Source: Candidatus Omnitrophota bacterium (GTDB taxonomy: Bacteria > Omnitrophota > Gorgyraeia > Duberdicusellales > 4484-171). Taken from it: a DNA stretch of 64,000 bases. Positions 1,730 to 55,127 of the stretch are shown piece by piece (the first letter of the stretch is position 1; each line of letters opens with the position of its first letter). The translations under genes and the position numbers were made by a program. Location of the stretch: the NCBI GenBank assembly GCA_021735655.1, contig JAIPGM010000003.1, positions 1 to 64,000 on the forward strand, given 5' to 3'. The notes below the pieces were generated by a model that had not been told where the DNA came from, ran no database searches, and was given only the letters and a program-made list of their open reading frames with translations.

Positions 1730-3697
1730 ATGAATATATTAGTTACAGGCGGAGCAGGTTTTATAGGTTCACATTTCATTAGGCATCTGCTTAAGAGTCA
1801 CAATCACCGTGTCTTTAACCTTGATAACTTGAGTTATGCCGGAGATTTAGCCAGGCTTAAAGATGTCGAGAAGAACAGCAGGTATCATTTTATAAAGGGA
1901 GATATACGGAATATTGAAAACATTGAGGGAGTTTTTTCTCATGACATCGATACAGTGGTTCATTTAGCTGCCGAAAGCATTCCCGAGGATGTTTATGTCC
2001 CAGTCCAATCTGTCCCCAAGATAGGGACAAGAACAATTACATTTGGTGAGTTGTGGAAAGAACAGTCCAAAAATAATAAGCCCATAAAGAACGAAAAGGG
2101 CGAAGCAATATTTTTAAGAGGCAAACAGACGAAAATTTTAAGTTTTCTGAATGGTGGTCAATGGATGCCAGTCAAAGCAATTACTCGACATAGGTATAAA
2201 GGTAAGATCATAAAACTAATTCAGAAACAAGGAGTTATAAAAGCAACTCCAAACCATTCTATTTATAGTTCAAGTCTTGAGTTGACCAATCCACACACTA
2301 ACCCGGAGTTATTGGTTATTAGAGAAATAAACGAGATAAAAAAAAGGAATAAGAGAAAAAGCTTGGCACTTTTGGAAATTTTAGCAGCTTATATAACAGA
2401 AGGAAATGCGACTTTCAATAAAGCTAATGGCGGATATATCATAGAAATTAATCAAACTAACAAGGGATGGATTGAACATATAGGAGAACTAATTAGAAAA
2501 GAGTTTTCGTTAAAATTCTATATCGGTAAACATAAAAATAAACAGCATAAAGATGTGTTTTATTTACAGGTGTCCAATAAGAAGTTTTTCAATTATTTAA
2601 TAAAAAATTGTGGAAAATATTGTGATGGAAAATTCTTTCCAGATTGGATTTTTGATTTAGAGAGTAATCAACGGAGTTTTTTTTGGAGTAAGTTACTTGA
2701 AGGCGATGGCACTAAAGATGGCAGGTATTCTACGACTTCTTACAAATTAACGAATCAAATCAGCCTCCTTTTGACATTACAAGGAAAAAAATTCAAAGTT
2801 TTTGAATACGATAGAAAGAACTATAAAAGAAGCTGGGAGTTCAAGACTGAATTATCTGGTCAGCATTATGGATTGGTGAAGAGAAAAAAACAGGAAATTC
2901 AATATGAAGGATGGGTTTATGATCTGGAAGTAGAAAAGAGCCACAATTTCGTTTGTGGAATAGGAAATGTAGTTTGTCATAATACCCATGTCGACAATTC
3001 GATTAAGGATCCTTTTGTTTTTGAGGCGGTAAATGTTCGAGGAACGCTCAACCTCCTAGCTTGCGCCAGAAAACACAAGGTTACAAGATTTATTCATATC
3101 TCAACTGATGAAGTTTATGGAGAGATAGAAGAGGGTAAATTTACTGAGGATTCGCATTTAGCACCAAATTCACCTTATTCAGCTTCTAAAGCTGCTGGTG
3201 ATTTTTTTGTTCGTTCTTATATCCGTACTTTTGACTTTCCGGCGATTATTATCCGACCTTCTAATAACTATGGTCCTTGGCAGTATCCTGAGAAGTTTAT
3301 ACCGGTAGCTATATCTAGTGTCTTGGCTGATAAGAAGATACCAGTTTATGCTCAAGGTTTAAATTGTCGCGAATGGCTGTATGTTACTGATTGCGTTAAG
3401 GGTATTGCTTTAATTATGGATAAGGGTAAAGTCGGCGAAGTCTATAATTTAGGTTCAAATATTGAGAGACGAAATATTGATTTAGCTAAAGAGATACTTA
3501 AGATTCTTAATAAGCCCGATGATTTTATTAATTTTGTTGCTGATCGTCCCGGACACGATTTTCGGTATTGCCTAGATTCAGCTAAAGTCAATAATTTGGG
3601 CTGGAGTCCGGAAGTAGGCTTCGAAATTGGCATAACTGCTACTGTTGAATGGTATAAGAATAAGAGAACTTGGACTGAAGGTAAGTTGAGCCGATAA
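1730..3697 (+). CDS. rfbB: dTDP-glucose 4,6-dehydratase precursor containing an intein
   Basis: The N-terminus VTGGAGFIGSH...HLAAE and the C-terminal part (THVDNSI, YSASKAAGD, PSNNYGP) match RmlB. A 336-aa insert separates them. The precursor is 655 aa; a typical RmlB is about 330-350 aa. Confidence 0.85.
   Translation: MNILVTGGAGFIGSHFIRHLLKSHNHRVFNLDNLSYAGDLARLKDVEKNSRYHFIKGDIRNIENIEGVFSHDIDTVVHLAAESIPEDVYVPVQSVPKIGTRTITFGELWKEQSKNNKPIKNEKGEAIFLRGKQTKILSFLNGGQWMPVKAITRHRYKGKIIKLIQKQGVIKATPNHSIYSSSLELTNPHTNPELLVIREINEIKKRNKRKSLALLEILAAYITEGNATFNKANGGYIIEINQTNKGWIEHIGELIRKEFSLKFYIGKHKNKQHKDVFYLQVSNKKFFNYLIKNCGKYCDGKFFPDWIFDLESNQRSFFWSKLLEGDGTKDGRYSTTSYKLTNQISLLLTLQGKKFKVFEYDRKNYKRSWEFKTELSGQHYGLVKRKKQEIQYEGWVYDLEVEKSHNFVCGIGNVVCHNTHVDNSIKDPFVFEAVNVRGTLNLLACARKHKVTRFIHISTDEVYGEIEEGKFTEDSHLAPNSPYSASKAAGDFFVRSYIRTFDFPAIIIRPSNNYGPWQYPEKFIPVAISSVLADKKIPVYAQGLNCREWLYVTDCVKGIALIMDKGKVGEVYNLGSNIERRNIDLAKEILKILNKPDDFINFVADRPGHDFRYCLDSAKVNNLGWSPEVGFEIGITATVEWYKNKRTWTEGKLSR
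1976..2983 (+). mobile_element. intein with LAGLIDADG homing endonuclease domain inserted in rfbB
   Basis: Begins with Ser after HLAAE. Block B-like ATPNHSIY. LAGLIDADG-like LLEILAAYITEGNAT and WSKLLEGDGTKDG. Block F/G WVYDLEVEKSHNFVCGIGNVVCHN, followed by the Thr(+1)HVDNSI extein. Confidence 0.8.
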
Positions 3698-15388: not shown

Positions 15389-17194
15389 ATGAAACACTTT
15401 AAGAATATTTTATTAAAAAATAAGGCTCTTGTAGTTGTTATTTTTATTTCTGGAATAATTGCTTCTTTCATGGAGGGATTAGGCTTAGGTTTAATTTTGC
15501 CTCTTTTAGAGGGGGTTAAGGGTAAGATGGCTTCGGGGGTTCCTTTTCCTTTCAGTATTATTTCAAATTTTTTTAGCACAATGGCTCTTGGAGAGAGAAT
15601 AAGATTAGTCGCATTTTTTTTAGTTATTATCACCCTCTTCAAGGGGGCAGCTTTTTACCTTAATACTTTATCAGTAACTCGTCTTCAGGTAGCGGCAATT
15701 AAGTATTATCGAATGAAGTGTTACGATCAGTTAATGAAGTTGGGCATGAGTTATCTTAATGGACAAAAAATGGGTCATTTGCAAACTATTGTTATTACTC
15801 ATACTGAGAGATTAGGTTCGTTAGTCAACATAGTTGCTAGTCTTGTTTTTAGAAGCTGTACTTTAATAATGCTTATGGTGATGTTGTTTATTTTATCTTG
15901 GAAGATGACCATGATTTCTCTTTTTATTGTTGTTTTTGCTTCAGTATTATTGCGCAAGATTGCCCAGCGGGCTGAAAAATCCGGTAAAAGGCTTACGGAG
16001 TCTATTAAAGAACTTAACCGAACAATTTTAGATACTCTTCTAGGGATGAAAATAATCCGTTTCTTTTGCCGTCAAAAAGACATGACTAGAGAGTTTCAGG
16101 CTAAAGTTGAAGATGTGAATAGGAACATGTATGCGCTTGCTAGGGCTCGACGGTCGCTTCAGCCTCTTTTTGAAACTTTAGGAGTAACAAGCTTTGCTTT
16201 AATTCTTTTAATCGGATCGTTTTTATTAATGTCAGAGAACAAGGGATTAGGCCTAGAGGTTGTTTTAACTTTTATTTTAATATTTTTTAGAATTCTTCCT
16301 CCGGCAATGGCTCTTAATGATGCTCGGGTAGGCATTAGAGGAGACTTACCCTATTATCGTCAAGCCCATCAGTTTATAGATAGTCAGGATAAGTCTTATT
16401 TATCCGGCGGGAGCAAAACAATCGAAAGATTATCTAAAAAAATTGAATTTCAAAATTTGGAATTTAGCTATAATCTTAAAGAGCTTATTGTTTTGAAAAA
16501 TTTATCATTTAGTATTCCTAAAGGTGCTAAAGTCGGAATCGTTGGCCATTCAGGATGCGGAAAATCTACAATTGTTGAGTTAATTTTACGTTTTTATGAT
16601 CCGCAAAAGGGAAATATTTTTATTGATGGTTTTGATTTAAAAGATTTGAATTTGAATTCTTGGCGTAGACTCGTGGGTGTTGTTTCTCAGGATACGTTTC
16701 TTTTTCATGACACTATCAGGGCTAATATTATCTTTGCTAAACCGGATTCTACTCAGCAAGAAATAGAATACGCAGCAAGAAAAGCGCATGCTTACGATTT
16801 CATTCAAAATTTACCTAAACGCTACGATACTCTAGTTGGTGAAAGAGGGGTGCTGCTGTCGGGTGGTCAAAGGCAAAGAATTGCTATTGCCCGGGCTATC
16901 ATCATGGATCCTGATATACTTATTTTTGACGAAGCAACTTCTAGCTTGGATACAGAGTCGGAAGGGATAGTCCAAAAGGCGCTTGATGAGGTTGGAGAGG
17001 GTAAGACAGTGATTACCATTGCTCATCGTCTTTCTACTATTTATGATTCGGATATAATTTTAGTTTTTGATTCTGGAGAAATAGTCCAACAAGGAACACA
17101 CCGAGAGCTAATTAAGCAGGGAGGCCTTTATGGCAAGTTAGTTAAGATGCAAACTATGGATGATTTAGAGCCTAAAAATATTTTTATAAGATGA
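15389..17194 (+). CDS. ABC transporter permease/ATPase, MsbA/PglK-like exporter
   Basis: N-terminal TM domain. Walker A GHSGCGKST, signature LSGGQRQRIAIARA, Walker B ILIFDEATSSLD. Confidence 0.85.
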   Translation: MKHFKNILLKNKALVVVIFISGIIASFMEGLGLGLILPLLEGVKGKMASGVPFPFSIISNFFSTMALGERIRLVAFFLVIITLFKGAAFYLNTLSVTRLQVAAIKYYRMKCYDQLMKLGMSYLNGQKMGHLQTIVITHTERLGSLVNIVASLVFRSCTLIMLMVMLFILSWKMTMISLFIVVFASVLLRKIAQRAEKSGKRLTESIKELNRTILDTLLGMKIIRFFCRQKDMTREFQAKVEDVNRNMYALARARRSLQPLFETLGVTSFALILLIGSFLLMSENKGLGLEVVLTFILIFFRILPPAMALNDARVGIRGDLPYYRQAHQFIDSQDKSYLSGGSKTIERLSKKIEFQNLEFSYNLKELIVLKNLSFSIPKGAKVGIVGHSGCGKSTIVELILRFYDPQKGNIFIDGFDLKDLNLNSWRRLVGVVSQDTFLFHDTIRANIIFAKPDSTQQEIEYAARKAHAYDFIQNLPKRYDTLVGERGVLLSGGQRQRIAIARAIIMDPDILIFDEATSSLDTESEGIVQKALDEVGEGKTVITIAHRLSTIYDSDIILVFDSGEIVQQGTHRELIKQGGLYGKLVKMQTMDDLEPKNIFIR

Positions 17195-19578
17195 GTGAAA
17201 AGAGAGCAATTATTCTTGGAGCCGGTGGAGTTGGCCTAATTTCAGCCTGGAAACTTCTCGAAGAGGGCTGGAGGGTTGATGTCTATGAAGCTACAGACCA
17301 GGTTGGTGGGATGTGTAAGACTTGGAAATGGGGAGAGTACTTATTAGATACGGGTCCACACATTTATCATACTCCTGATGAAAATTTATCTAAATTTTGG
17401 GAATCTGAATTTGGAGATTTATTTATTCAGCGTGAGTTTTGGTGTAAGAATGTTAAAGGCGATGATTTTAAGCAGTATTGGGACTATCCTTTATCTTGGG
17501 AGAGTATTTCTCGGTATCCTAAAGAGTTAAAAGATAAGGTTTTAGGAGAACTGCATAATATAAGCTTGCAAGGAAGAGCTAGAGCTACAAATTATACCGA
17601 ATATATGGATGCTCAAGTAGGGCCGACCTTGCGTGAGATGTTTTTTAAAAAGTTTCCGGAAAAGATTTGGGGTATTTCAACTAACCATATGGCTACTGAT
17701 TGGGCACCAAAAAGGATTGAGGTTCGTCAGAAGGTTACTCCTTTTTACCATAAACAGTGGAATGCTGTAGGTAAGTATGGGGCCGGTTGTATCTTTGAGC
17801 GAATAAAGGAGAAAGTTTTAACTCTTGGTGGAAATATTCATTTTAATCATATTGTAAGCGCTTTCGAATCGCAAGGAAATGCTATTTCGGCCATTGAGTT
17901 TTCAATAAAAAAGAGCAGGACAGTTTTCCCGGACGAAGTTATTATTTCTAGTTTAGCAATTACTGATTTGGCTAGATTTTTAGGTTATGAGAGTAAATTA
18001 GATTTTCGTGCTTTGCGTACCGTTTACCTAGCTTATGATAAAGAGATGATTCTGCCTAAAGGTATAGATTGGCTTTATTATGATTCGGAAAAAACTTACT
18101 TTAGCCGGATTACTGAACCCAAAAAACTTTCTCCTTACGTGTCTGCTAAAGATAAAACTTATCTTACTTTAGAGATAACTTGTTCTAAAGACGATGAAAT
18201 CTATAAGATGGAAGGAGAGAAGCTGGTAAAGAAAGTAGCTGAGCAAGTTGAGCTAGTAGGGTTAGCTAAGATTAGTGAGGTAGCTGCTTCAACCATTCAT
18301 AGCGAAGACCATGTGTATCCTATACAGCATCATGGCTACCAGGAAGAACTCTCTAAAACTCGCTCAGTGATTACCAGCTTTCAACAAATCTACTCTTTGG
18401 GAACTGGAGGAGAGTTTCACTATTCGGATATTCAAATTCTTTTTCATAAGGCTTTTGATTTGGTAGCGACACTTTGTAATAAGGGGTCAAACTTTACCCA
18501 AACTATTAGAAAAACTAAAGCTTGTCAGTTAAACTCGGTAGTTTCGATTAGAAATCGAGAGGTTGGTTTTGGCAGGCCAGCCTATATAATTGCTGAAGCT
18601 GGATTAAATCATAATGGCAGCATAGAAGTGGCTAAACAACTTATTGATCGGGCTAAAGAATCTGGAGCAGACGCGATTAAATTTCAAACTTTTAAGCCGG
18701 GAAGCCGAATATCTAAAAAGGTAAAGGCTGCTCGTTATGCCGAAACTATAATTGGCTTAGAAGAGACCCTTTACGACATGTTTGATCGTCTGGCTATGGG
18801 GCATGATGATCAAAAAGATCTTTTTAACTATGCTCGAAAGAGTGGTATTGAAATTTTCTCAACTCCTTTTGACCTTGAAAGTGCTGAGTTTTTAAATAGT
18901 TTGGGAGTAGGTGTTTTTAAAATAGCTTCGATGGATCTAGTAAGCTTACCTTTTATTAAGCAGGTGGCTAGAATGGGTAAGCCAATGATTCTTTCAACTG
19001 GCATGTCGACTTTGGGTCAGGTTGAAGAGGCTTTAGAGGTGATTCGTCAGCAAGACAATCCTAACGTGATGCTACTTCATTGTAACTCTTCTTACCCTGC
19101 AGCCCAGGAAGAAATGAATTTGCAGGTTATTGAGACTCTCAAGAAATGTTTTAAGGTTCCGGTGGGACTGTCTGATCATACTTTTGGTTTATTTGTATCA
19201 CACACAGCTCTTGTGTTGGGTGCGGATTTAATTGAAAGGCATTTTACTTTAGATCGAGCCATGGAAGGACCAGACCATATTTTATCTTCAGCGCCAGCAG
19301 AGCTAGCTGAGCTAGTTTCAATGTCAAAGAAAATACCCGAAGTTTTAGGCGATGGTATTAAAAGGATTCAGCCTAATGAATATGATACTTTAAACACGCA
19401 AAGAAAAAGTCTTTATGCAGCTTGCGATATTAAAAAAGGAACGGTGATTACACAAGGGATGGTTGCGATTAAAGGTCCTGGTGGAGGGCTTTTACCGAAA
19501 TATTTTGATTTGGTTGCTGGGCGCATCGCCAAAGTTGACATTGAAGAAGATCATCCAATCACTTGGGAGGCTATTTGA
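17191..19578 (+). CDS. fusion protein: N-terminal FAD-dependent oxidoreductase (UDP-galactopyranose mutase-like) + C-terminal NeuB-type ulosonic acid synthase
   Basis: N-term: IILGAGGVGL...YEATDQVGGMC...GPHIYHT...KKFPEKIWG. C-term: AYIIAEAGLNHNGS...DAIKFQTFK plus SAF-like AIKGPGGGL. 795 aa. Confidence 0.7.
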   Translation: MSEKRAIILGAGGVGLISAWKLLEEGWRVDVYEATDQVGGMCKTWKWGEYLLDTGPHIYHTPDENLSKFWESEFGDLFIQREFWCKNVKGDDFKQYWDYPLSWESISRYPKELKDKVLGELHNISLQGRARATNYTEYMDAQVGPTLREMFFKKFPEKIWGISTNHMATDWAPKRIEVRQKVTPFYHKQWNAVGKYGAGCIFERIKEKVLTLGGNIHFNHIVSAFESQGNAISAIEFSIKKSRTVFPDEVIISSLAITDLARFLGYESKLDFRALRTVYLAYDKEMILPKGIDWLYYDSEKTYFSRITEPKKLSPYVSAKDKTYLTLEITCSKDDEIYKMEGEKLVKKVAEQVELVGLAKISEVAASTIHSEDHVYPIQHHGYQEELSKTRSVITSFQQIYSLGTGGEFHYSDIQILFHKAFDLVATLCNKGSNFTQTIRKTKACQLNSVVSIRNREVGFGRPAYIIAEAGLNHNGSIEVAKQLIDRAKESGADAIKFQTFKPGSRISKKVKAARYAETIIGLEETLYDMFDRLAMGHDDQKDLFNYARKSGIEIFSTPFDLESAEFLNSLGVGVFKIASMDLVSLPFIKQVARMGKPMILSTGMSTLGQVEEALEVIRQQDNPNVMLLHCNSSYPAAQEEMNLQVIETLKKCFKVPVGLSDHTFGLFVSHTALVLGADLIERHFTLDRAMEGPDHILSSAPAELAELVSMSKKIPEVLGDGIKRIQPNEYDTLNTQRKSLYAACDIKKGTVITQGMVAIKGPGGGLLPKYFDLVAGRIAKVDIEEDHPITWEAI

Positions 19579-42091: not shown

Positions 42092-44260
42092 TTGAGACAA
42101 ATATTTAAAATGGGAATGAGGGGTGAGGAGAAAAATAATCAGAGAAGTTATTATATACAAAATCTTACAGTCGCTCCTTGGCTAGTATCGATAGCTCCTT
42201 ATCTAATGCGTAATTTTTTCAAGGGGAATAGAAATATCAAAGTTTATTTTATCGATGCTTCAATATGTGGTTTATGGCTGGCGCGCTTCATGTTATTATT
42301 TTTTGGTCTCAAGCTTAATGAGTTGAAATTTCGTTTGGTTGATGTCCATGATGACGATGGTGTTCTTCTGCATCTACGAGTAGATTATTTTGATTCTACG
42401 GTTGTGCAAAAATATATATTGGAAAGGCCTATTTTCTCGGAGCTGTTTTTAAACAAGCCTGCTAAAAGTAGAATAGCTATGTTTTTGGCAAAACGCATTT
42501 TTGCCTCTGCTAGTAAGCCTGAATCGACATTAGATAGAGCAGTTTATCTCATTCAAGTAGTTAAGCAAAAGTCAAAAGAGTATGTAGCTGAATGCTTGCA
42601 GCCTGTTTTGTTTTTGGACAGAAGGTTGTGGATGAATGAAATTAAAAGATATGCGTGCAAGCATAATATATCTGTTATTGGCGCTAAAAGTTTTAATATC
42701 AATTTTAAATATTTTTTATTAGGGTTTTTGGGACCAAAAATAAATATTTTAAAAAATATCTATTTTTGGTTTTTAAGAATAAAAAGAAGTTTTTGCAGTA
42801 AGTATGGCTGGATTGTTAAAAATAAGAAATCAATTTCAATCGTTATCAGACATAAAAAAAATAATGCAGATAATAGCATTATTGGTAGCCAGGTAAAGCT
42901 TGGGGTTAACTATTATGGTCATCTTAATCTTAATAATCCAGAACTGTATTCGGATTTATTTTTTTTACAGCAGTCAGATTTATCAGGAAAAGATATTTTA
43001 ATCGTATCTAATATGCTGTTTGATCCCATTGATGATAAAAAATTAATGGAGATTGCCAAGCATGATATGAATGTAGTTGCGCTTTCAGCAAAGGCAACTA
43101 ATAGTTTTTCCGTGCCGTTTTTTTACCATTGGCCGAGTCGTAGCTCAAATTCATCGTTTAAGTTTATCTCAAAAAATGCTTATAATGGCGATGAGCGCAG
43201 ATGGTTTCTGCGGCAGATGAGAGACTACTATAAGGATTGTAATTATTGGCAGGATTTTTTTGCAAAGCATAATGTTAAGGCATTTATGACTTGGTATAAG
43301 TATGATGCTTCTCACTGTGTTGTTGCCGATGCCATGCGGAATGTTGGAGGAATAATGGCTGTTTATCAACGCGCCTTTGAGGAATTTCCTTCTTGCAAGA
43401 CAACGATTGCGTCTGATGTTGTGTTTGGTTTTTCGCCTGCAAATGCTGAGATTGAACGTCTTTCCGGTTCACAGATTTCCTACCATATTTCTACAGGTTA
43501 TTATGCTGACTACAGGCTACCTTTGCTAAAGGCGCATGCACAGAGGGTGCGCACATCTCTACAGCAAAGAGGAGCTAAACAAATTATTGCTTATTTTGAT
43601 GAAAATTCCGGAGCTGATTCTCGTTGGCATAATGGGCATGAATCTACAATAGCTAATTATGATTTTTTACTTAAAAAAGTTTTATCTCAAAAATGGTTTG
43701 GTCTTATTTTAAAACCTAAGGTTCCCTCAACGTTAAGATTGAGGCTGGGGCTAACGGCAGACTTACTTAAGGAAGCAGAAGCAACTGGAAGGTGTTTTGT
43801 CTTTGAGGCAGGGGCCTTGCATAGTGCCTACCCTCCCGCTATAGCTGCTCTAGCTTCTGATATCGCCATCCACGGTCATCTGTATGCTGCAACAGCTGGG
43901 CTTGAATCAGCGCTTGCAGGAGTCCCTACTCTTTTACTTGATCGTGAAGGCTGGTCGATTAGTAAATTATACCATTTGGGTTTAGGACGGGTAGTTTTTA
44001 CTGATTGGCAAAGTCTTTGGAAAACATATATTGAATATTGGCAGGATTCCAGGAAGGTGCCAGGCTTCGGCGATTGGTCTTCGATGATAAATGATTTAGA
44101 TCCTTTCAGAGATGGCCGAGCAGCAGAAAGAATAGGTACATACTTGAAGTGGTTGCTTGACGGCTTTAAGCAAGGGCTTAAACGAGAAGATATTATGGCT
44201 TCTGCCGCAGAGCGTTATGCTAGGATTTGGGGAAGTGATAAAATAGCTACACTGGGGTAG
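42092..44260 (+). CDS. large hypothetical protein (722 aa), GT-B-like C-terminal region; candidate glycosyltransferase
   Basis: The C-terminal AIAALASDIAIHGHLYAATAGLESALAGVPTLLLD resembles the GT-B nucleotide-binding half. Confidence 0.3.
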   Translation: MRQIFKMGMRGEEKNNQRSYYIQNLTVAPWLVSIAPYLMRNFFKGNRNIKVYFIDASICGLWLARFMLLFFGLKLNELKFRLVDVHDDDGVLLHLRVDYFDSTVVQKYILERPIFSELFLNKPAKSRIAMFLAKRIFASASKPESTLDRAVYLIQVVKQKSKEYVAECLQPVLFLDRRLWMNEIKRYACKHNISVIGAKSFNINFKYFLLGFLGPKINILKNIYFWFLRIKRSFCSKYGWIVKNKKSISIVIRHKKNNADNSIIGSQVKLGVNYYGHLNLNNPELYSDLFFLQQSDLSGKDILIVSNMLFDPIDDKKLMEIAKHDMNVVALSAKATNSFSVPFFYHWPSRSSNSSFKFISKNAYNGDERRWFLRQMRDYYKDCNYWQDFFAKHNVKAFMTWYKYDASHCVVADAMRNVGGIMAVYQRAFEEFPSCKTTIASDVVFGFSPANAEIERLSGSQISYHISTGYYADYRLPLLKAHAQRVRTSLQQRGAKQIIAYFDENSGADSRWHNGHESTIANYDFLLKKVLSQKWFGLILKPKVPSTLRLRLGLTADLLKEAEATGRCFVFEAGALHSAYPPAIAALASDIAIHGHLYAATAGLESALAGVPTLLLDREGWSISKLYHLGLGRVVFTDWQSLWKTYIEYWQDSRKVPGFGDWSSMINDLDPFRDGRAAERIGTYLKWLLDGFKQGLKREDIMASAAERYARIWGSDKIATLG

Positions 44261-46028: not shown

Positions 46029-47828
46029 ATGAGAATAATTTGTTTTTTAAATCCAAAATTAATTAGCAGTCACAAAATTCCCGTTTTTAATAAAAATCGT
46101 TATATTATTTCCTATGATGAGTTTAAACCGCGGGAAGCTATTACTAGAGATAGCAACCTTAAACAAATTATAATTTTTCCAATAACAAATCAAGAGCGGG
46201 CCACTTGCGAAAGAGAGTATATCGCTAATGTTTCAAAATTATCCGAGATTTTTGATTCATTGGAGTGGTGGGCGAATCCAATTTCTGAGAAAAATGAACA
46301 TTCTTCTATACAGTATAAAGATTTGTGTTTATTTTTTTCTTTAATAAAAACTATAGATAAACATAGGGATGAACGATGCGACATTTTGGTTTATGGGGAC
46401 GGTAGTATTTATAATATTCTGAGAAAGCATTATTCGAACAAGGGGATACAGGTAGTATTCATAGGTAGCAAACTCTTTAGAAACATCCAAAGTTTTATAT
46501 ACCAGATACTAAAAATCGTATTATTATTTTTTAAAATTATTTCACGCAAGTTATTTTTGAGGAAAATAGCCAGTAAACTAAGGAAACAATTAAGTAACAA
46601 AAGCTGTTATTATGTAATAAGGACATGGCTTTATAATCAACCAGATGCTAATTTCAGAAATGATGCTTTTTTTGGAAGATTGCCTGAATACGCAGCGAAT
46701 CGAGGCAATAAAGTATTACTGCTAGGTGGAATTATTGATAATTATCGAAAGATTTTGCAAAAAATATTAAAGTCTGATGGTAAAACTATTGTTATTCCGG
46801 AAGAGTATTTTTTAAAATATTCAGATATTTTTAAGTTATTCGTTTATTTTAAATTTAAAATCAGGAAGCTTGATAGCAAAATTATTTTTAAGGGAATTGA
46901 TGTAACAGATTACTATTCTCAAGAGATTTTTAAAGGATTTTGGCAAGACTCATATATTTATAATATTATTCGTTATATGATTGCAAAGCGTTTTGGCGAA
47001 ACTGTTAATTTTAATGTTTTCCTGCAGACTTTTGAAAATTATGCTTGGGAAAAAGTGACCATTAAAGGGATTAAGGCGGCAAGGAGCAATTGTAGGGTAT
47101 TAGGATTTCAGCATGCCTTCGTGTCAAGGAATTCATTTAAGTATTTTCCTGGACAACAGGAATTAGACAGGATTCCTTTACCAGATAAAATTATTACTAT
47201 GGGTGAGAGGACAAAAGAGATTTTGCAAAATTACGGAGCTTATCGCAAAGAACAAATCGTAGTTGGTTGTGCTTTACGCCAACAGTATCTCGATGATTTG
47301 TCTTTTATAGAGAGGCGGCGTTGCAATAAAATACTAGTACCATTGACAATGGTTACTCAGGAGTCAATCAGAATTATTAAGTTTCTTTGCGACTCTAATA
47401 TTTCTAAGACAAATAAAAATATTGTTATTAGGCCTCATCCAGCACGGGATTTTAAATCAGTAAAAGAAAAGATTCCATTTGAAATACCCAGTAATTTTAT
47501 AATTAATAATTGTAAGACGATGAAGGAAGAGTTATCTGATGCAGGTATGGTTTTGTATACTTGGTCAACGATTTCTGCCGAAGCATTAAGATTGGGGTTG
47601 CCGGTAATTTATCTGGATATATTAAGGCCACTTTATGTTGATCCTTTATTTGAATGTGATGCTCTTAAAAGAAAGGTTAGTGAGGCTGATGAGCTTGTGC
47701 CGGCAGTTGACAGCCTTTATGGGATAAGTAATGATGATTTTGAAATTGAACGGAAGATGGCCAGTGAGTATAGTAAAAGTTATTTTTATCCAGTAACAGA
47801 AAGTAATTTAGCACATTTTTTTTCGTAA
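46029..47828 (+). CDS. large hypothetical protein (599 aa), GT-B-like; candidate glycosyltransferase/polymerase
   Basis: C-terminal IVIRPHPARD...DAGMVLYTWSTISAEALRLGLPVIYLD resembles a GT-B donor-binding domain. Confidence 0.3.
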   Translation: MRIICFLNPKLISSHKIPVFNKNRYIISYDEFKPREAITRDSNLKQIIIFPITNQERATCEREYIANVSKLSEIFDSLEWWANPISEKNEHSSIQYKDLCLFFSLIKTIDKHRDERCDILVYGDGSIYNILRKHYSNKGIQVVFIGSKLFRNIQSFIYQILKIVLLFFKIISRKLFLRKIASKLRKQLSNKSCYYVIRTWLYNQPDANFRNDAFFGRLPEYAANRGNKVLLLGGIIDNYRKILQKILKSDGKTIVIPEEYFLKYSDIFKLFVYFKFKIRKLDSKIIFKGIDVTDYYSQEIFKGFWQDSYIYNIIRYMIAKRFGETVNFNVFLQTFENYAWEKVTIKGIKAARSNCRVLGFQHAFVSRNSFKYFPGQQELDRIPLPDKIITMGERTKEILQNYGAYRKEQIVVGCALRQQYLDDLSFIERRRCNKILVPLTMVTQESIRIIKFLCDSNISKTNKNIVIRPHPARDFKSVKEKIPFEIPSNFIINNCKTMKEELSDAGMVLYTWSTISAEALRLGLPVIYLDILRPLYVDPLFECDALKRKVSEADELVPAVDSLYGISNDDFEIERKMASEYSKSYFYPVTESNLAHFFS

Positions 47829-53343: not shown

Positions 53344-53480
53344 CTTATGACAAGAAACAATTATAGGAGTTATATATTTTTATTTGATGTTTATTGTTTT
53401 ATTGTTGCCGCTATATATGTAGGGTGGAGAATATTTATTTTTCTAAAAAGATATTTTTAGGATACTGTTTAATCAATAAA

Positions 53481-55127
53481 ATGTTATCGAAAAAGACAAA
53501 TTCCTTTAGTAGCTTTTCAAACCTGCTTCATTTACCTAGTTTTGCATTGATCATAGGCTATATAATTTATTGGTTTGAGATATATTTTTTTAAAAAAGGC
53601 CAAGGTTTAAGCTCACCATTAGCTACCTGTTTGCTTGCCGTTCTTGCTATATATTTATTTTTCGGACAAAGAAAGCTATTTTTCTCAGCAGTTGATTGGT
53701 GCATTAAGGAATATAAACAAGAGAGTAAAATAAGAAAAGCCGTAATATTGCTGGCTTGTTGTATTGTCTTTTTAATACTGTTGACTACATTTTTTGCACT
53801 TTTACTACCGCCGCATCTAGCTCAGGAGTTTGATGCCTTGAATTATCATTTGACGCTTCCTCGGCAGCATTTGATTTTAGGTTCCTTTTCGCATATTCAC
53901 TGGTCTGCGGCCGATTTATTTCCTTTGCCGATACAGTTTGCGCTGGCTCCCTATTGGCTAATTAAGGAGATTCCTAGTAAGTTTATCCATATATTGTTTG
54001 TTTTTGGGTTATTAGCGATTTCTTTAAATCTTATAAGGTGTTTTAGCAACAACAATTTTTTGTCTTTATTTATCGGATTAATGGCTATCTTGGGTTCTCA
54101 TAATGTGGGCATACAAATTCCGATTCTGATGCTTGATATTGTTATATGTTATCTATTTTTAGCTAGTATTGATAGTTTTTTAGAGGGAAAAATTATCCTC
54201 GGGTCTATAGAGTTATCTTTCTTTATATGGTCAAAGTCTTTTGTCCCATTTCAAATGTTGGCAATTTTAACTATAATTTTTCTGATCGGATTACTTTTGA
54301 AAAAGCTTGGGGCCAATAATAGAAGTTGGGTTTTTGAAAAAACTTCTTACGATAAGTTACTCTCCAGAAAATATCTTAAGAAGAGTGTATTGTATCTATT
54401 TCTATCTAGTATGCTTGTCGGCGGACCTTTTATGGCTAAGTCGCTACTTAAGTCAGGAACGCCCTTGTTTCCTTTTTCTCCCGGTCTTCTAAAGACATCT
54501 TCAGTTGACCAAAAAACACCGCATTGGCGATCAATCGTAGCTTCTTCAGAAAGGCATTTTTCCACCAAAGATGCTTATGGATCAGGAAGGTCAATATTAG
54601 AATTCTTACGGCATCTATGGCTTATAGCTGTGCCCGAAGATCAGACTACAAATCGTTACGACTACCCCCTCGGTTTGCCTTATTTACTTTTTCTTGCCCC
54701 TTTTATTTACTTTGTTTTTATATCTTTTAAAAAGAAACAGCTTGTTTTGTTACCTTTATTTGCAGTTAGTTTTTGGATGCTTTGGTGGTTTGGTTCCCAG
54801 CAAGCCAGGTTTCTTTATATTCCTTTATTGATTATTTTTATCAGTGTGGCGGCTAAAATAAAACAACCAAGAAATTCATTTATTTACGCCTTAGTTATCG
54901 CATTACTCTTTAATTTTATATCTATTTTTAGAGCTCACTCAGGTGATCTCTTCAAGCCTTCAGTAAAGGTGTTGCGAACCAAAGACAAACAGCTGATAGA
55001 AATGAATAAAAAGTATCGTGATAGATCTAGTTTGAGTCCAGTAGTTTTAGATTATTATGATGTTGCTTATGCCAATTTTCCTTTAAAGATTGTTGGCAAA
55101 AACCGTTTTTGGGTTTTAGAGGAGTAG
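53481..55127 (+). CDS. polytopic membrane protein, GT-C-like glycosyltransferase candidate
   Basis: At least 12 hydrophobic segments. Start uncertain: the ORF is open from 53394. Confidence 0.35.
   Translation: MLSKKTNSFSSFSNLLHLPSFALIIGYIIYWFEIYFFKKGQGLSSPLATCLLAVLAIYLFFGQRKLFFSAVDWCIKEYKQESKIRKAVILLACCIVFLILLTTFFALLLPPHLAQEFDALNYHLTLPRQHLILGSFSHIHWSAADLFPLPIQFALAPYWLIKEIPSKFIHILFVFGLLAISLNLIRCFSNNNFLSLFIGLMAILGSHNVGIQIPILMLDIVICYLFLASIDSFLEGKIILGSIELSFFIWSKSFVPFQMLAILTIIFLIGLLLKKLGANNRSWVFEKTSYDKLLSRKYLKKSVLYLFLSSMLVGGPFMAKSLLKSGTPLFPFSPGLLKTSSVDQKTPHWRSIVASSERHFSTKDAYGSGRSILEFLRHLWLIAVPEDQTTNRYDYPLGLPYLLFLAPFIYFVFISFKKKQLVLLPLFAVSFWMLWWFGSQQARFLYIPLLIIFISVAAKIKQPRNSFIYALVIALLFNFISIFRAHSGDLFKPSVKVLRTKDKQLIEMNKKYRDRSSLSPVVLDYYDVAYANFPLKIVGKNRFWVLEE

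Follow-up and report, generated by a model that had tools for sequence, protein, structure and literature searches.

According to one survey (PMC4760082), the great majority of inteins are found in ATPases and in proteins of replication, recombination and repair. Table 2 of that survey lists the intein of Mja UDP-glucose dehydrogenase (UDP-GlcDH, COG1004) with 10 archaeal inteins and, as far as the survey's table goes, it is confined to the Euryarchaeota (PMC4760082). The Mja intein provides a precedent for insertion into an enzyme that acts on nucleotide sugars and has a dinucleotide-binding fold of the Rossmann type. Among inteins of solved structure, the PI-PkoII/PI-PspI type (2cw7) interrupts an archaeal replication protein, the Thermococcales DNA polymerase B, and PI-PspI starts with Ser1 in a block A that reads SILPEEWVPL. 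The VMA inteins (TliVMA, 7qsu/7qss; PhoVMA, 7qst; PI-SceI, 1vde) have a P-loop ATPase host and Cys1/Cys+1 nucleophiles, and carry a two-motif LAGLIDADG endonuclease nested within a HINT horseshoe. Here we analyse a 64-kb stretch of Omnitrophota DNA (the window), in which the gene for the sugar-nucleotide enzyme dTDP-glucose 4,6-dehydratase (RmlB) is interrupted by an insert. Sequence comparison and structure prediction indicate that the insert is very probably a class-1 intein that is competent to splice and has an intact and probably active LAGLIDADG endonuclease, seated in the β4–α4 loop of RmlB. The host family and the insertion site both differ from those of the Mja UDP-GlcDH intein. The element type is well known, and we found no published description of this host and site: a literature search returned no paper on an RmlB or short-chain dehydrogenase (SDR) intein, a result that does not by itself prove absence from the literature. 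Two apparent literature matches proved to be an entry in a reference list and a table row for a UDP-glucose/GDP-mannose dehydrogenase.

The window is a single-strand surface-glycan cluster with the intein-bearing gene at its head. The host gene, its two exteins and its upstream neighbours are as follows.

142–1011, + strand: rmlA, upstream context (Pfam NTP_transferase).
1013–1573, + strand: rmlC, directly upstream of rmlB (Pfam dTDP_sugar_isom).
1730–3697, + strand: rmlB (rfbB) precursor open reading frame, 655 residues plus stop; intein-interrupted dTDP-glucose 4,6-dehydratase (open reading frame listing, TIGR01181).
1730–1975, + strand: N-extein, 82 residues; Rossmann-fold strands β1–β4, with HLAAE at its C-terminal end.
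2984–3697, + strand: C-extein, 237 residues plus stop; opens with the Thr+1 nucleophile (ACC, 2984–2986), followed by HVDNS.

The 1,965-nt frame of the precursor is uninterrupted. The split host scores 393.1 bits with TIGR01181 (dTDP-glucose 4,6-dehydratase; cutoff 365.1), in a match that the insert divides into two segments. The precursor retains the GxxGxxG motif (residues 6 to 14), STDEVYG (residues 458 to 464, with S/T-D-E at 458 to 461) and YSASK (YxxxK; residues 483 to 487), and GxxGxxG, STDE and YxxxK are invariant or nearly invariant in alignment A4. The profile score, the motifs and the rml gene context together identify the host as RmlB. The order rmlA–rmlC–rmlB recurs in the intein-containing loci L003 and L052 and in the intein-free locus L050. 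HLAAE occupies residues 78 to 82 (nucleotides 1961–1975) and THVDNS begins at residue 419 (nucleotide 2984), so that removal of the insert leaves a 319-residue RmlB, which aligns end to end and without a gap at the junction with the solved RmlB structures 6bi4 (E = 1.8e-98) and 2hun (E = 2.4e-94). In a model of the precursor, β4 spans residues 75 to 78 and the insertion lies four residues downstream, in the β4–α4 loop. Rfam and tRNA scans of the 64-kb window gave no matches, the predicted RNA fold of the spacer at 1574–1732 was not significant (z = −1.58), and a search of the other long open reading frames in the window found no further inteins.

The insert belongs to the class-1 inteins. It encloses a two-motif LAGLIDADG homing endonuclease, has a complete set of splicing residues and is organized as follows.

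1976–2983, + strand: intein, 336 residues, 39.2 kDa, pI 9.7; HINT splicing domain with nested LAGLIDADG homing endonuclease.
1976–2005, + strand: block A, SIPEDVYVPV, with the Ser1 nucleophile (codon AGC, 1976–1978).
2243–2266, + strand: block B, ATPNHSIY, intein residues 90 to 97; Thr91 and His94 form the TxxH motif.
2351–2875 (approximate), + strand: LAGLIDADG endonuclease domain, about intein residues 126 to 300; two α-β-β-α-β-β-α halves in the model.
2369–2413, + strand: LAGLIDADG motif 1, LLEILAAYITEGNAT, intein residues 132 to 146, with catalytic Glu142-Gly143.
2684–2722, + strand: LAGLIDADG motif 2, WSKLLEGDGTKDG, intein residues 237 to 249, with catalytic Asp244-Gly245.
2912–2983, + strand: blocks F and G, WVYDLEVEKSHNFVCGIGNVVCHN, intein residues 313 to 336, with Asp316, His323, His335 and Asn336.

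An earlier note, made from the letters of the window, had proposed a canonical LAGLIDADG intein in the AAE-[S/T]-HVD block. Its reading frame of 655 residues, its HLAAE and THVDNS flanks and its 336-residue insert at 1976–2983 all agree exactly with our analysis, and the hallmarks that it named (Ser1, ATPNHSIY, two LAGLIDADG motifs, the terminal block and Thr+1) are all present at the sequence level. Profile matches, the fold, invariant residues and the clean reconstitution of the exteins bear out the proposal as a whole. Ser1, Thr91, His94, Glu142, Gly143, Asp244, Gly245, Asp316, His335 and Asn336 do not vary across 14 full-length inteins at 50–74% identity (Thr91 and His94 in alignments A2 and A3 alike), His323 is nearly invariant (at least 90% of relatives) and position +1 is Thr or Ser in every relative. 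Intein residues 313 to 336 match TIGR01443 above its cutoff (25.7 bits against 15.6). The matches to Pfam Intein_splicing (PF14890; 31.9 bits, E = 1.4e-7, curated cutoff 35.8), TIGR01445 (21.9 bits, E = 2.7e-4, curated cutoff 24.5) and Pfam LAGLIDADG_3 (20.0 bits, E = 8.6e-4, gathering cutoff 22.5) fall just below the respective thresholds, and several relatives carry a precomputed PF14528 match. We rejected an alternative boundary shifted downstream by one codon (extein ...AAES, intein IPED...HNT), because an intein must end in Asn with the nucleophile next. In the DNA, however, the intein opens with AGC, which is also the Ser codon of the empty sites, and the insertion point is therefore ambiguous by 3 nt.

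An AlphaFold model of the intein (pLDDT 92.2, pTM 0.91) has VMA inteins as its top Foldseek matches (TliVMA 7qsu, E = 1.6e-20, TM 0.76) and also matches PI-PkoII (2cw7, TM 0.76), PhoVMA, PI-PfuI (1dq3) and PI-SceI; matches that include the TFIIB and RadA mini-inteins support the HINT fold. The VMA inteins share the overall architecture of the window intein at 15–16% identity, whereas the latter uses Ser1/Thr+1 and sits in a Rossmann-fold SDR. The closest solved structure by sequence is PI-PkoII (E = 8.6e-12), and the match covers the N-lobe, the endonuclease and the C-terminal block. Block A is nearly identical to that of PI-PspI. Both 2cw7 and the window intein have a ...YxxEG-type first LAGLIDADG motif (LLGYYVSEGYA and LAAYITEGNA, respectively), and the ending ...GYVYDL...NF...HN is common to both. 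However, PI-PkoII has 537 residues as against 336, its chain residues ~140–278 are without a counterpart in the window intein, structural alignment gives only ~16% identity, and the host here is a bacterial sugar-nucleotide enzyme.

The endonuclease domain retains its expected features. Glu142-Gly143 (...AAYITE-G) lies at the C-terminal end of model helix 130–142, Asp244-Gly245 (...LLEGD-G) directly follows model helix 230–243, and the duplicated α-β-β-α-β-β-α order fits the secondary structure of the model. Foldseek aligns this middle domain with I-DmoI (1b24; r.m.s.d. 3.3, 178 alignment columns), I-SceI (3oor/1r7m) and the endonuclease domains of PI-PkoII and PI-PfuI. The dN/dS ratio is 0.06–0.09 for the whole intein, and in the endonuclease domain, at 0.063–0.068 against three relatives, it equals that of the splicing domain. 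Purifying selection thus acts on both domains of the intein, although a low dN/dS records past selection and is no proof that the present copy is active.

One further element of the intein bears on whether homing is being lost.

2338–2345, + strand: A8 homopolymer, in frame, encoding the Lys-Lys of the linker IKKRNK (intein residues 121 to 126) between the HINT N-lobe and the endonuclease.

The earlier note had set this run at 2336–2346 inside the endonuclease domain and read it as a possible sign of decaying homing. The position holds approximately, but the run lies in the linker, ahead of the first LAGLIDADG helix and outside the endonuclease core. It is one of nine runs of at least A8 in the AT-rich window. 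Two further A-rich homopolymers lie within the intein, at 2785–2791 and 2884–2890.

It could be argued that the intein is fixed and vertically inherited, with an endonuclease that is dead or dying, so that splicing is kept and homing lost. The three A-rich homopolymers would fit such a history, as would erosion in relatives: P0148 has a 292-residue intein that lacks ~45 residues of the domain, and motif 2 has become LFERDG in P0135 and LLFGDG in P0145. We consider this history improbable, because the frame is intact, the A8 run is kept identically in L004 and L005, both catalytic acids are invariant and the endonuclease domain is as constrained as the splicing domain. The inference of decay from the A8 run fails on the same observations.

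Vertical inheritance is also at odds with the divergence of intein and exteins. The intein is the more similar part in 23 of 23 comparisons: amino-acid identity for intein and exteins is 97.6% versus 76.8% with L004, 84.5% versus 53.2% with L006 and 72.9% versus 48.4% with the patescibacterial L001. Compared with other Omnitrophota, DNA identity is 95–96% in the intein and 70–76% in the exteins, and along the gene the identity to L004 rises from ~70% to 96% and falls again to ~72%, with steps close to both junctions. pS between the window and L004/L005 is 0.16–0.19 in the intein, as against 0.71–0.80 in the exteins, where synonymous sites are saturated. Base composition shifts in the same interval: G+C is 32.9% in the intein and 38.2% in both exteins, dipping to 28–33% inside a gene of 38–41%. 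Furthermore, the closest extein overall, that of L050 (81.7% nucleotide identity), is intein-free. L050 has an intact empty site, GCTGAA|AGCCATGTTGAT (in context, GTTCATTTAGCTGCTGAA|AGCCATGTTGATAATTC; the bar marks the insertion point), at which BLASTN alignment with the window breaks cleanly, window positions 1978 and 2986 both mapping to subject position 2569. The empty site is present in the syntenic loci L050 and L051, and intein-free homologues at 76–84% identity read AAESHVD. The +1 site is Ser in the 11 closest intein-free homologues, and AAETHVD is about as common as AAESHVD among the 120 best homologues.

Vertical inheritance cannot yield this pattern, given the discordance between intein and exteins and the intein-free nearest extein. 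The intein arrived in rmlB far more recently than rmlB split from its relatives, and it looks recently mobile. Its copies share a common ancestry far more recent than that of the host genes, which indicates horizontal spread. No co-conversion tract longer than ~11–20 nt is visible at the junctions, where conserved coding flanks limit detection. Viral contigs contain no close relative of the intein, their matches being restricted to the C-terminal block or distant (21–26% identity), and a phage vector is therefore unsupported. With its DNA identity switching between 96% and ~70% near the junctions, the locus offers an unusually clean natural case of intein–extein discordance.

The canonical chemistry of the intein family suggests how the RmlB intein would work. 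Ser1, aided by Thr91 and His94, would undergo an N–O acyl shift; Thr+1, aided by Asp316, would then attack the resulting ester (trans-esterification); cyclization of Asn336, assisted by His335, would free the 39-kDa intein; and an O–N shift would restore a normal peptide bond, giving a 36-kDa RmlB that reads HLAAE-THVDNS. The predicted masses are 75.3 kDa for the precursor, 36.2 kDa for RmlB and 39.2 kDa for the intein. The freed intein would act as a site-specific endonuclease against intein-free alleles, with the conserved coding sequence ...GCTGC(C/T)GAA|A(G/C)(C/T)CATGT(C/T)GA(C/T)... as its likely target, and a cut empty allele would be converted by repair from the intein-carrying copy. 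We infer splicing itself, DNA cleavage and target specificity from the sequence and the structural model. The Ser1/Thr+1 nucleophile pair is less reactive than Cys/Cys, so that splicing could be slow or conditional.

Conditional splicing raises the question of a domesticated regulatory intein, in which redox, temperature or substrate would gate the supply of dTDP-rhamnose for the surface-glycan cluster. The insertion adjoins the cofactor-binding strand, so the unspliced precursor should be inactive; the intein stands at the head of the 64-kb single-strand cluster; and conditional protein splicing has been documented for at least some other inteins, such as those of RadA and DnaB. However, a selfish element accounts better than a host-selected switch for the patchy occurrence of the RmlB intein and for its recent horizontal transfer, and the closest relatives lack it, making regulation highly unlikely. 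Such a role would nonetheless be compatible with, rather than exclusive of, a splicing and homing intein.

RmlB is an uncommon intein host, as the earlier note had supposed. The full intein occurs in 7 of 185,579 species-representative genomes, and 32 clusters match it in a collection of 5.8 billion protein clusters. Its occurrence is sporadic: Omnitrophota, a Planctomycetia-labelled metagenome-assembled genome, Patescibacteria, Kuenenbacteria, WWE3 and Methanotorris igneus. Same-site relatives occupy RmlB in Methanotorris igneus (P0147, RefSeq/UniRef; annotated protein of 598 residues), in Patescibacteria/CPR and in Omnitrophota, and also interrupt the paralogues RmlD (P0145) and GDP-mannose 4,6-dehydratase (P0154, P0157 and P0158). 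They share block sequences, are 35–98% identical to the window intein, and have a common insertion point, AA[EKQF]|S...HN|[ST]xV, directly after β4 (profile positions ~82/83 in TIGR01181, 85/86 in TIGR01472 and ~61 in TIGR01214). The GDP-mannose 4,6-dehydratase and archaeal versions differ from the window intein in having an extra ~40–60 residues between the N-lobe and the endonuclease. None of these is a described intein, the database entries being either unannotated or wrongly annotated. The recurrent error that they expose is that several NCBI gene calls, named 'GDP-mannose 4,6-dehydratase', are truncated and start inside the intein; in L001 and L002 the reading frame stays open farther upstream, across the N-extein, which identifies the truncated entries as mis-called starts.

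That the gene is non-functional, through chimeric assembly or as an rmlB pseudogene broken by foreign DNA, is scarcely credible. The sequence does come from a metagenome assembly (Logan SRR12088349), the G+C of the insert is deviant and several relatives appear in the databases as truncated proteins. But the exteins of the unbroken frame retain all RmlB catalytic motifs, the truncations are mis-called starts, and the same junction architecture recurs in many metagenome contigs and in at least seven independent assemblies of genomes, whose identical junctions also argue against a population-level chimera.

The splicing and homing intein favoured here may belong to a wider set. A tentative reading, to which we lean slightly less than we lean against it, is that a single intein lineage occupies the same post-β4 site in paralogous extended-SDR enzymes, has made both ectopic and allelic moves, and is currently mobile across bacteria and archaea. 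The paralogues concerned may comprise RmlB, RmlD, GDP-mannose 4,6-dehydratase and LegB-like enzymes, with the site AAx|[S/T]xVD, and current movement may involve ultra-small uncultured bacteria (Omnitrophota and Patescibacteria/CPR) and archaea. If true, this would rank among the rare, well-documented instances of an intein transposing to a new site, and the intein would mark recent gene flow between these bacteria and archaea.

The RmlB case leaves the understanding of intein function unchanged. It adds extended-SDR enzymes to the host range, since the intein, intact and recently mobile, lies in an enzyme of a cell-surface sugar pathway. The intein may help to trace DNA exchange among Omnitrophota, Patescibacteria and archaea, lineages that cannot be cultured. 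A compact 336-residue Ser1/Thr+1 intein with a new predicted LAGLIDADG specificity could also find modest use in protein or genome engineering. The hosts of its distant relatives include family-B polymerases, in P0011 (junction HN|TDS) and P0149 (Pfam DNA_pol_B_2).

The rmlB gene of the window, encoding dTDP-glucose 4,6-dehydratase (RmlB; rfbB), carries a 336-residue insert between HLAAE and THVDNS, in exact agreement with the coordinates proposed in the earlier note, and all motifs quoted there were found in the insert at their positions. Translation of the open reading frame (ORF) gives the following layout, in which the exteins are the flanking host halves:

1730-3697, + strand: rmlB precursor ORF (655 aa)
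1961-1975, + strand: HLAAE, the C-terminal end of the N-extein (82 aa)
1976-2983, + strand: intein (336 aa)
2984 onward (aa 419 onward), + strand: C-extein, from THVDNS

The NCBIfam equivalog model TIGR01181 (dTDP-glucose 4,6-dehydratase) matched the ORF with 393.1 bits (cutoff 365.1) in two stretches broken at the insert, and the Pfam Epimerase and GDP_Man_Dehyd matches are likewise split there. The insert-free 319-aa product aligned over its whole length to the solved structures 6bi4 (E = 1.8e-98) and 2hun (E = 2.4e-94) of RmlB, with a gapless junction, and rmlA and rmlC lie directly upstream. The host gene is identified by its sequence as RmlB.

The intein profile TIGR01443 (C-terminal region) scored 25.7 bits on the insert, above its cutoff of 15.6, whereas TIGR01445 (intein N-terminal region; 21.9 versus 24.5 bits), Pfam Intein_splicing (31.9 versus 35.8) and LAGLIDADG_3 (20.0 versus 22.5) gave significant E-values just under their curated cutoffs. 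The top solved relative by sequence was PI-PkoII (2cw7; E = 8.6e-12), in an alignment spanning the N-lobe, endonuclease and C-terminal block. An AlphaFold2 model of the intein, based on an alignment of 19 related inteins, was confident (mean pLDDT 92.2, pTM 0.91), and its leading Foldseek matches in the PDB were endonuclease-carrying inteins: TliVMA (7qsu; E = 1.6e-20, TM 0.76), PI-PkoII (TM 0.76), PhoVMA, PI-PfuI and PI-SceI. These were followed by mini-inteins, which cover the splicing lobes, and by the free-standing LAGLIDADG enzymes I-DmoI and I-SceI, which cover the middle domain. Ser1, Thr91, His94, Asp316, His335 and Asn336 are invariant in 14/14 full-length relatives (50-74% identity), as are the endonuclease residues Glu142-Gly143 and Asp244-Gly245; the +1 residue is Thr in every allele but one, which has Ser. 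Sequence and predicted fold identify the insert as a class-1 intein with a nested LAGLIDADG endonuclease, ordinary in mechanism, and its nearest known kinds are PI-PkoII and the VMA-type archaeal inteins.

An A8 run had been taken in the earlier note as a hint of decaying homing function. The run exists, at 2338-2345, but it is placed ahead of the first LAGLIDADG helix, where it encodes the Lys-Lys of the linker IKKRNK (intein aa 121-126). It is in frame and identical in two other genomes (L004 and L005), and the window holds nine runs of A8 or longer, this one included. The endonuclease-domain dN/dS (Nei-Gojobori) is 0.068 against L004, 0.063 against L005 and 0.065 against L006 (a Planctomycetia-labelled MAG), with the same values in the splicing lobes, which argues against decay. 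Signs of erosion occur among related alleles: the intein of P0148 (292 aa) is short of about 45 aa in the endonuclease domain, P0135 has LFERDG instead of LLEGDG and Ser at +1, and P0146 has the block-F His replaced by Asn (SNNF). The erosion in P0148 and P0135 indicates that endonuclease decay does occur among distant alleles of the family, not in the window copy.

In the precursor model, β4 of the Rossmann fold comprises aa 75-78 and the intein is inserted after Glu82, within the loop preceding the next helix. The hhHxAA segment at this site would correspond to the NNAG motif of classical SDRs and lie beside the NAD cofactor, so that a precursor that has not spliced is very probably inactive. 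Because AAESHVD (48) and AAETHVD (51) are similarly frequent among the best 120 intein-free homologues, the spliced HLAAE-T-HVD reads as a normal RmlB sequence. The 11 closest intein-free homologues (76-84% identity) all have Ser at the +1-equivalent site. The first intein codon, AGC, is identical to the Ser codon of empty sites, which leaves a one-codon ambiguity in where the insertion lies; the codon for Thr+1 may move together with the intein.

The intein was more similar than the exteins to its window counterpart in 23/23 pairwise comparisons, including the following.

Amino acid identity to the window copy (intein; exteins)
L004, Omnitrophota: 97.6%; 76.8%
L006, Planctomycetia-labelled MAG: 84.5%; 53.2%
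L001, Patescibacteria: 72.9%; 48.4%
P0145, RmlD host: 54.7%; 25.1%

DNA identity to L004 (63-nt bins) is 92-98% in the intein, against 67-75% in the N-extein and 59-81% in the C-extein, with a step near each junction, about 11 nt past the C-terminal one. Between the window and L004 or L005, pS at synonymous sites is 0.16-0.19 for the intein, well short of saturation, and 0.71-0.80 for the exteins, where it is saturated. An intein-free allele of the kind envisaged in the earlier note was found at L050, which has the closest extein to the window (81.7% nt identity), an intact site (GCTGAA↓AGCCATGTTGAT) and the same rmlA-rmlC-rmlB order. Another intein-free locus in synteny, L051, has the downstream epimerase and the two transketolase-subunit genes in common with the window. 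The G+C content is 28-33% in the intein versus 38-41% in the surrounding gene. At the level of sequence, the intein-extein discordance, the pS contrast, the intein-free L050 and L051 and the low G+C content together show horizontal acquisition of the intein by rmlB, in which it is much younger than rmlB itself. The expected route would be homing, driven by the endonuclease, into the conserved sequence that encodes AAE[S/T]HVD.

Searches of 5.8 billion protein clusters returned 14 clusters with the intein alone and 32 with an intein profile, nearly all in rmlB, and HMMER, run exhaustively over 1.84 billion representatives, gave 594 matches at E<=1e-3, 30 of them at E<=1e-30. The nearest named relatives (best hits), for intein and extein alike, are Candidatus Omnitrophota MAGs, which makes an uncultured Omnitrophota bacterium the most likely source. 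An identical protein occurs on a 90-kb contig in the Logan assembly of SRR12088349. In Methanotorris igneus, a cultured archaeon, an intein of 40% identity interrupts RmlB (P0147; RefSeq/UniRef) at the same site. A second tier (35-42% identity) occupies the matching position in GDP-mannose 4,6-dehydratase (TIGR01472), RmlD (TIGR01214; P0145, at 55%), LegB-like enzymes and other extended SDRs. In P0145, P0154, P0157, P0158, P0162, P0176 and P0153, the inteins are 35-55% identical and the site, after β4, reads AAx↓S...HN↓[S/T]xV. Related inteins at a structurally equivalent site in several SDRs suggest that a single lineage may have spread among extended-SDR paralogues. The split drops these hosts under their NCBIfam cutoffs (for example, gmd, 392.6 versus 415). 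The hosts of remoter relatives are PrkA kinases, family-B DNA polymerases and uncharacterised proteins without an NCBIfam name (P0165 and three sequences like it). The viral contigs searched contained no close relative.

The unusual feature is the host, not the intein mechanism. A full copy occurs in 7 of 185,579 species-representative genomes, a lower bound, as the genomes were scanned with two narrow peptide patterns: three Omnitrophota, one Planctomycetia-labelled MAG, a Patescibacteria-group bacterium, Kuenenbacteria and WWE3. Hosts named in a large intein-host survey are replication, repair and ATPase proteins, the sole sugar enzyme there being UDP-glucose dehydrogenase (PMC4760082). In the literature searched, we found no paper linking an intein with RmlB, rfbB or dTDP-glucose, although a supplementary table of that survey may include such an entry; this scarcity bears out the suspicion that RmlB is an uncommon intein host. 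Public-database copies exist, unannotated or mis-annotated. At L001:3566-5596 (GCA_018824845.1 JAHJFQ010000018.1) and L002:3368-5377 (GCA_016198305.1 JACQIU010000054.1), the deposited calls (531 and 458 aa) start inside the intein and are named 'GDP-mannose 4,6-dehydratase', and the frame upstream is open via Ser1 and the complete N-extein (676 and 669 aa, respectively). Such internal starts are an artefact of annotation that recurs because of the intein, and P0006 (408 aa, on a 7,320-bp contig) looks like another case. The annotated P0147 protein (598 aa) starts with MNLVTFGELF, at about intein residue 19, without the N-extein.

The window has 55 ORFs of 200 aa or more, tightly packed and all on the + strand, and it reads as a single very large glycan-biosynthesis cluster; tRNA and Rfam scans of the 64 kb gave no match. 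Its + strand genes and other features include:

+ strand: rmlACB, Fcl-like epimerase, split transketolase, two B12-radical SAM enzymes
+ strand: ABC exporter, two NeuB-family proteins, TPP enzyme
+ strand: Wzy_C-like protein (28.3 bits, under the Pfam cutoff of 31.7)
42092-44260, 46029-47828 and 53394-55127, + strand: three long ORFs (722, 599 and 577 aa), with no Pfam match at E<=1e-5
1584-1729: rmlC-rmlB spacer (~150 nt), one half A/T-rich, the other G+C-rich
17191-19578, + strand: 795-aa ORF, an apparent fusion

The spacer holds CTGGCTCGCGTGGCGGGCGGGTCGGCC...CCCTCA...TGAGGG, two hairpins; its sequence occurs once in the window, has a fold z-score of only -1.58 and no Rfam match, and is missing from L004 and L050, whose rmlC and rmlB genes adjoin or overlap. 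The 795-aa ORF appears to join an N-terminal flavin/UDP-galactopyranose-mutase-like region (NAD_binding_8, GLF), a complete NeuB domain and a SAF domain, an unusual combination.
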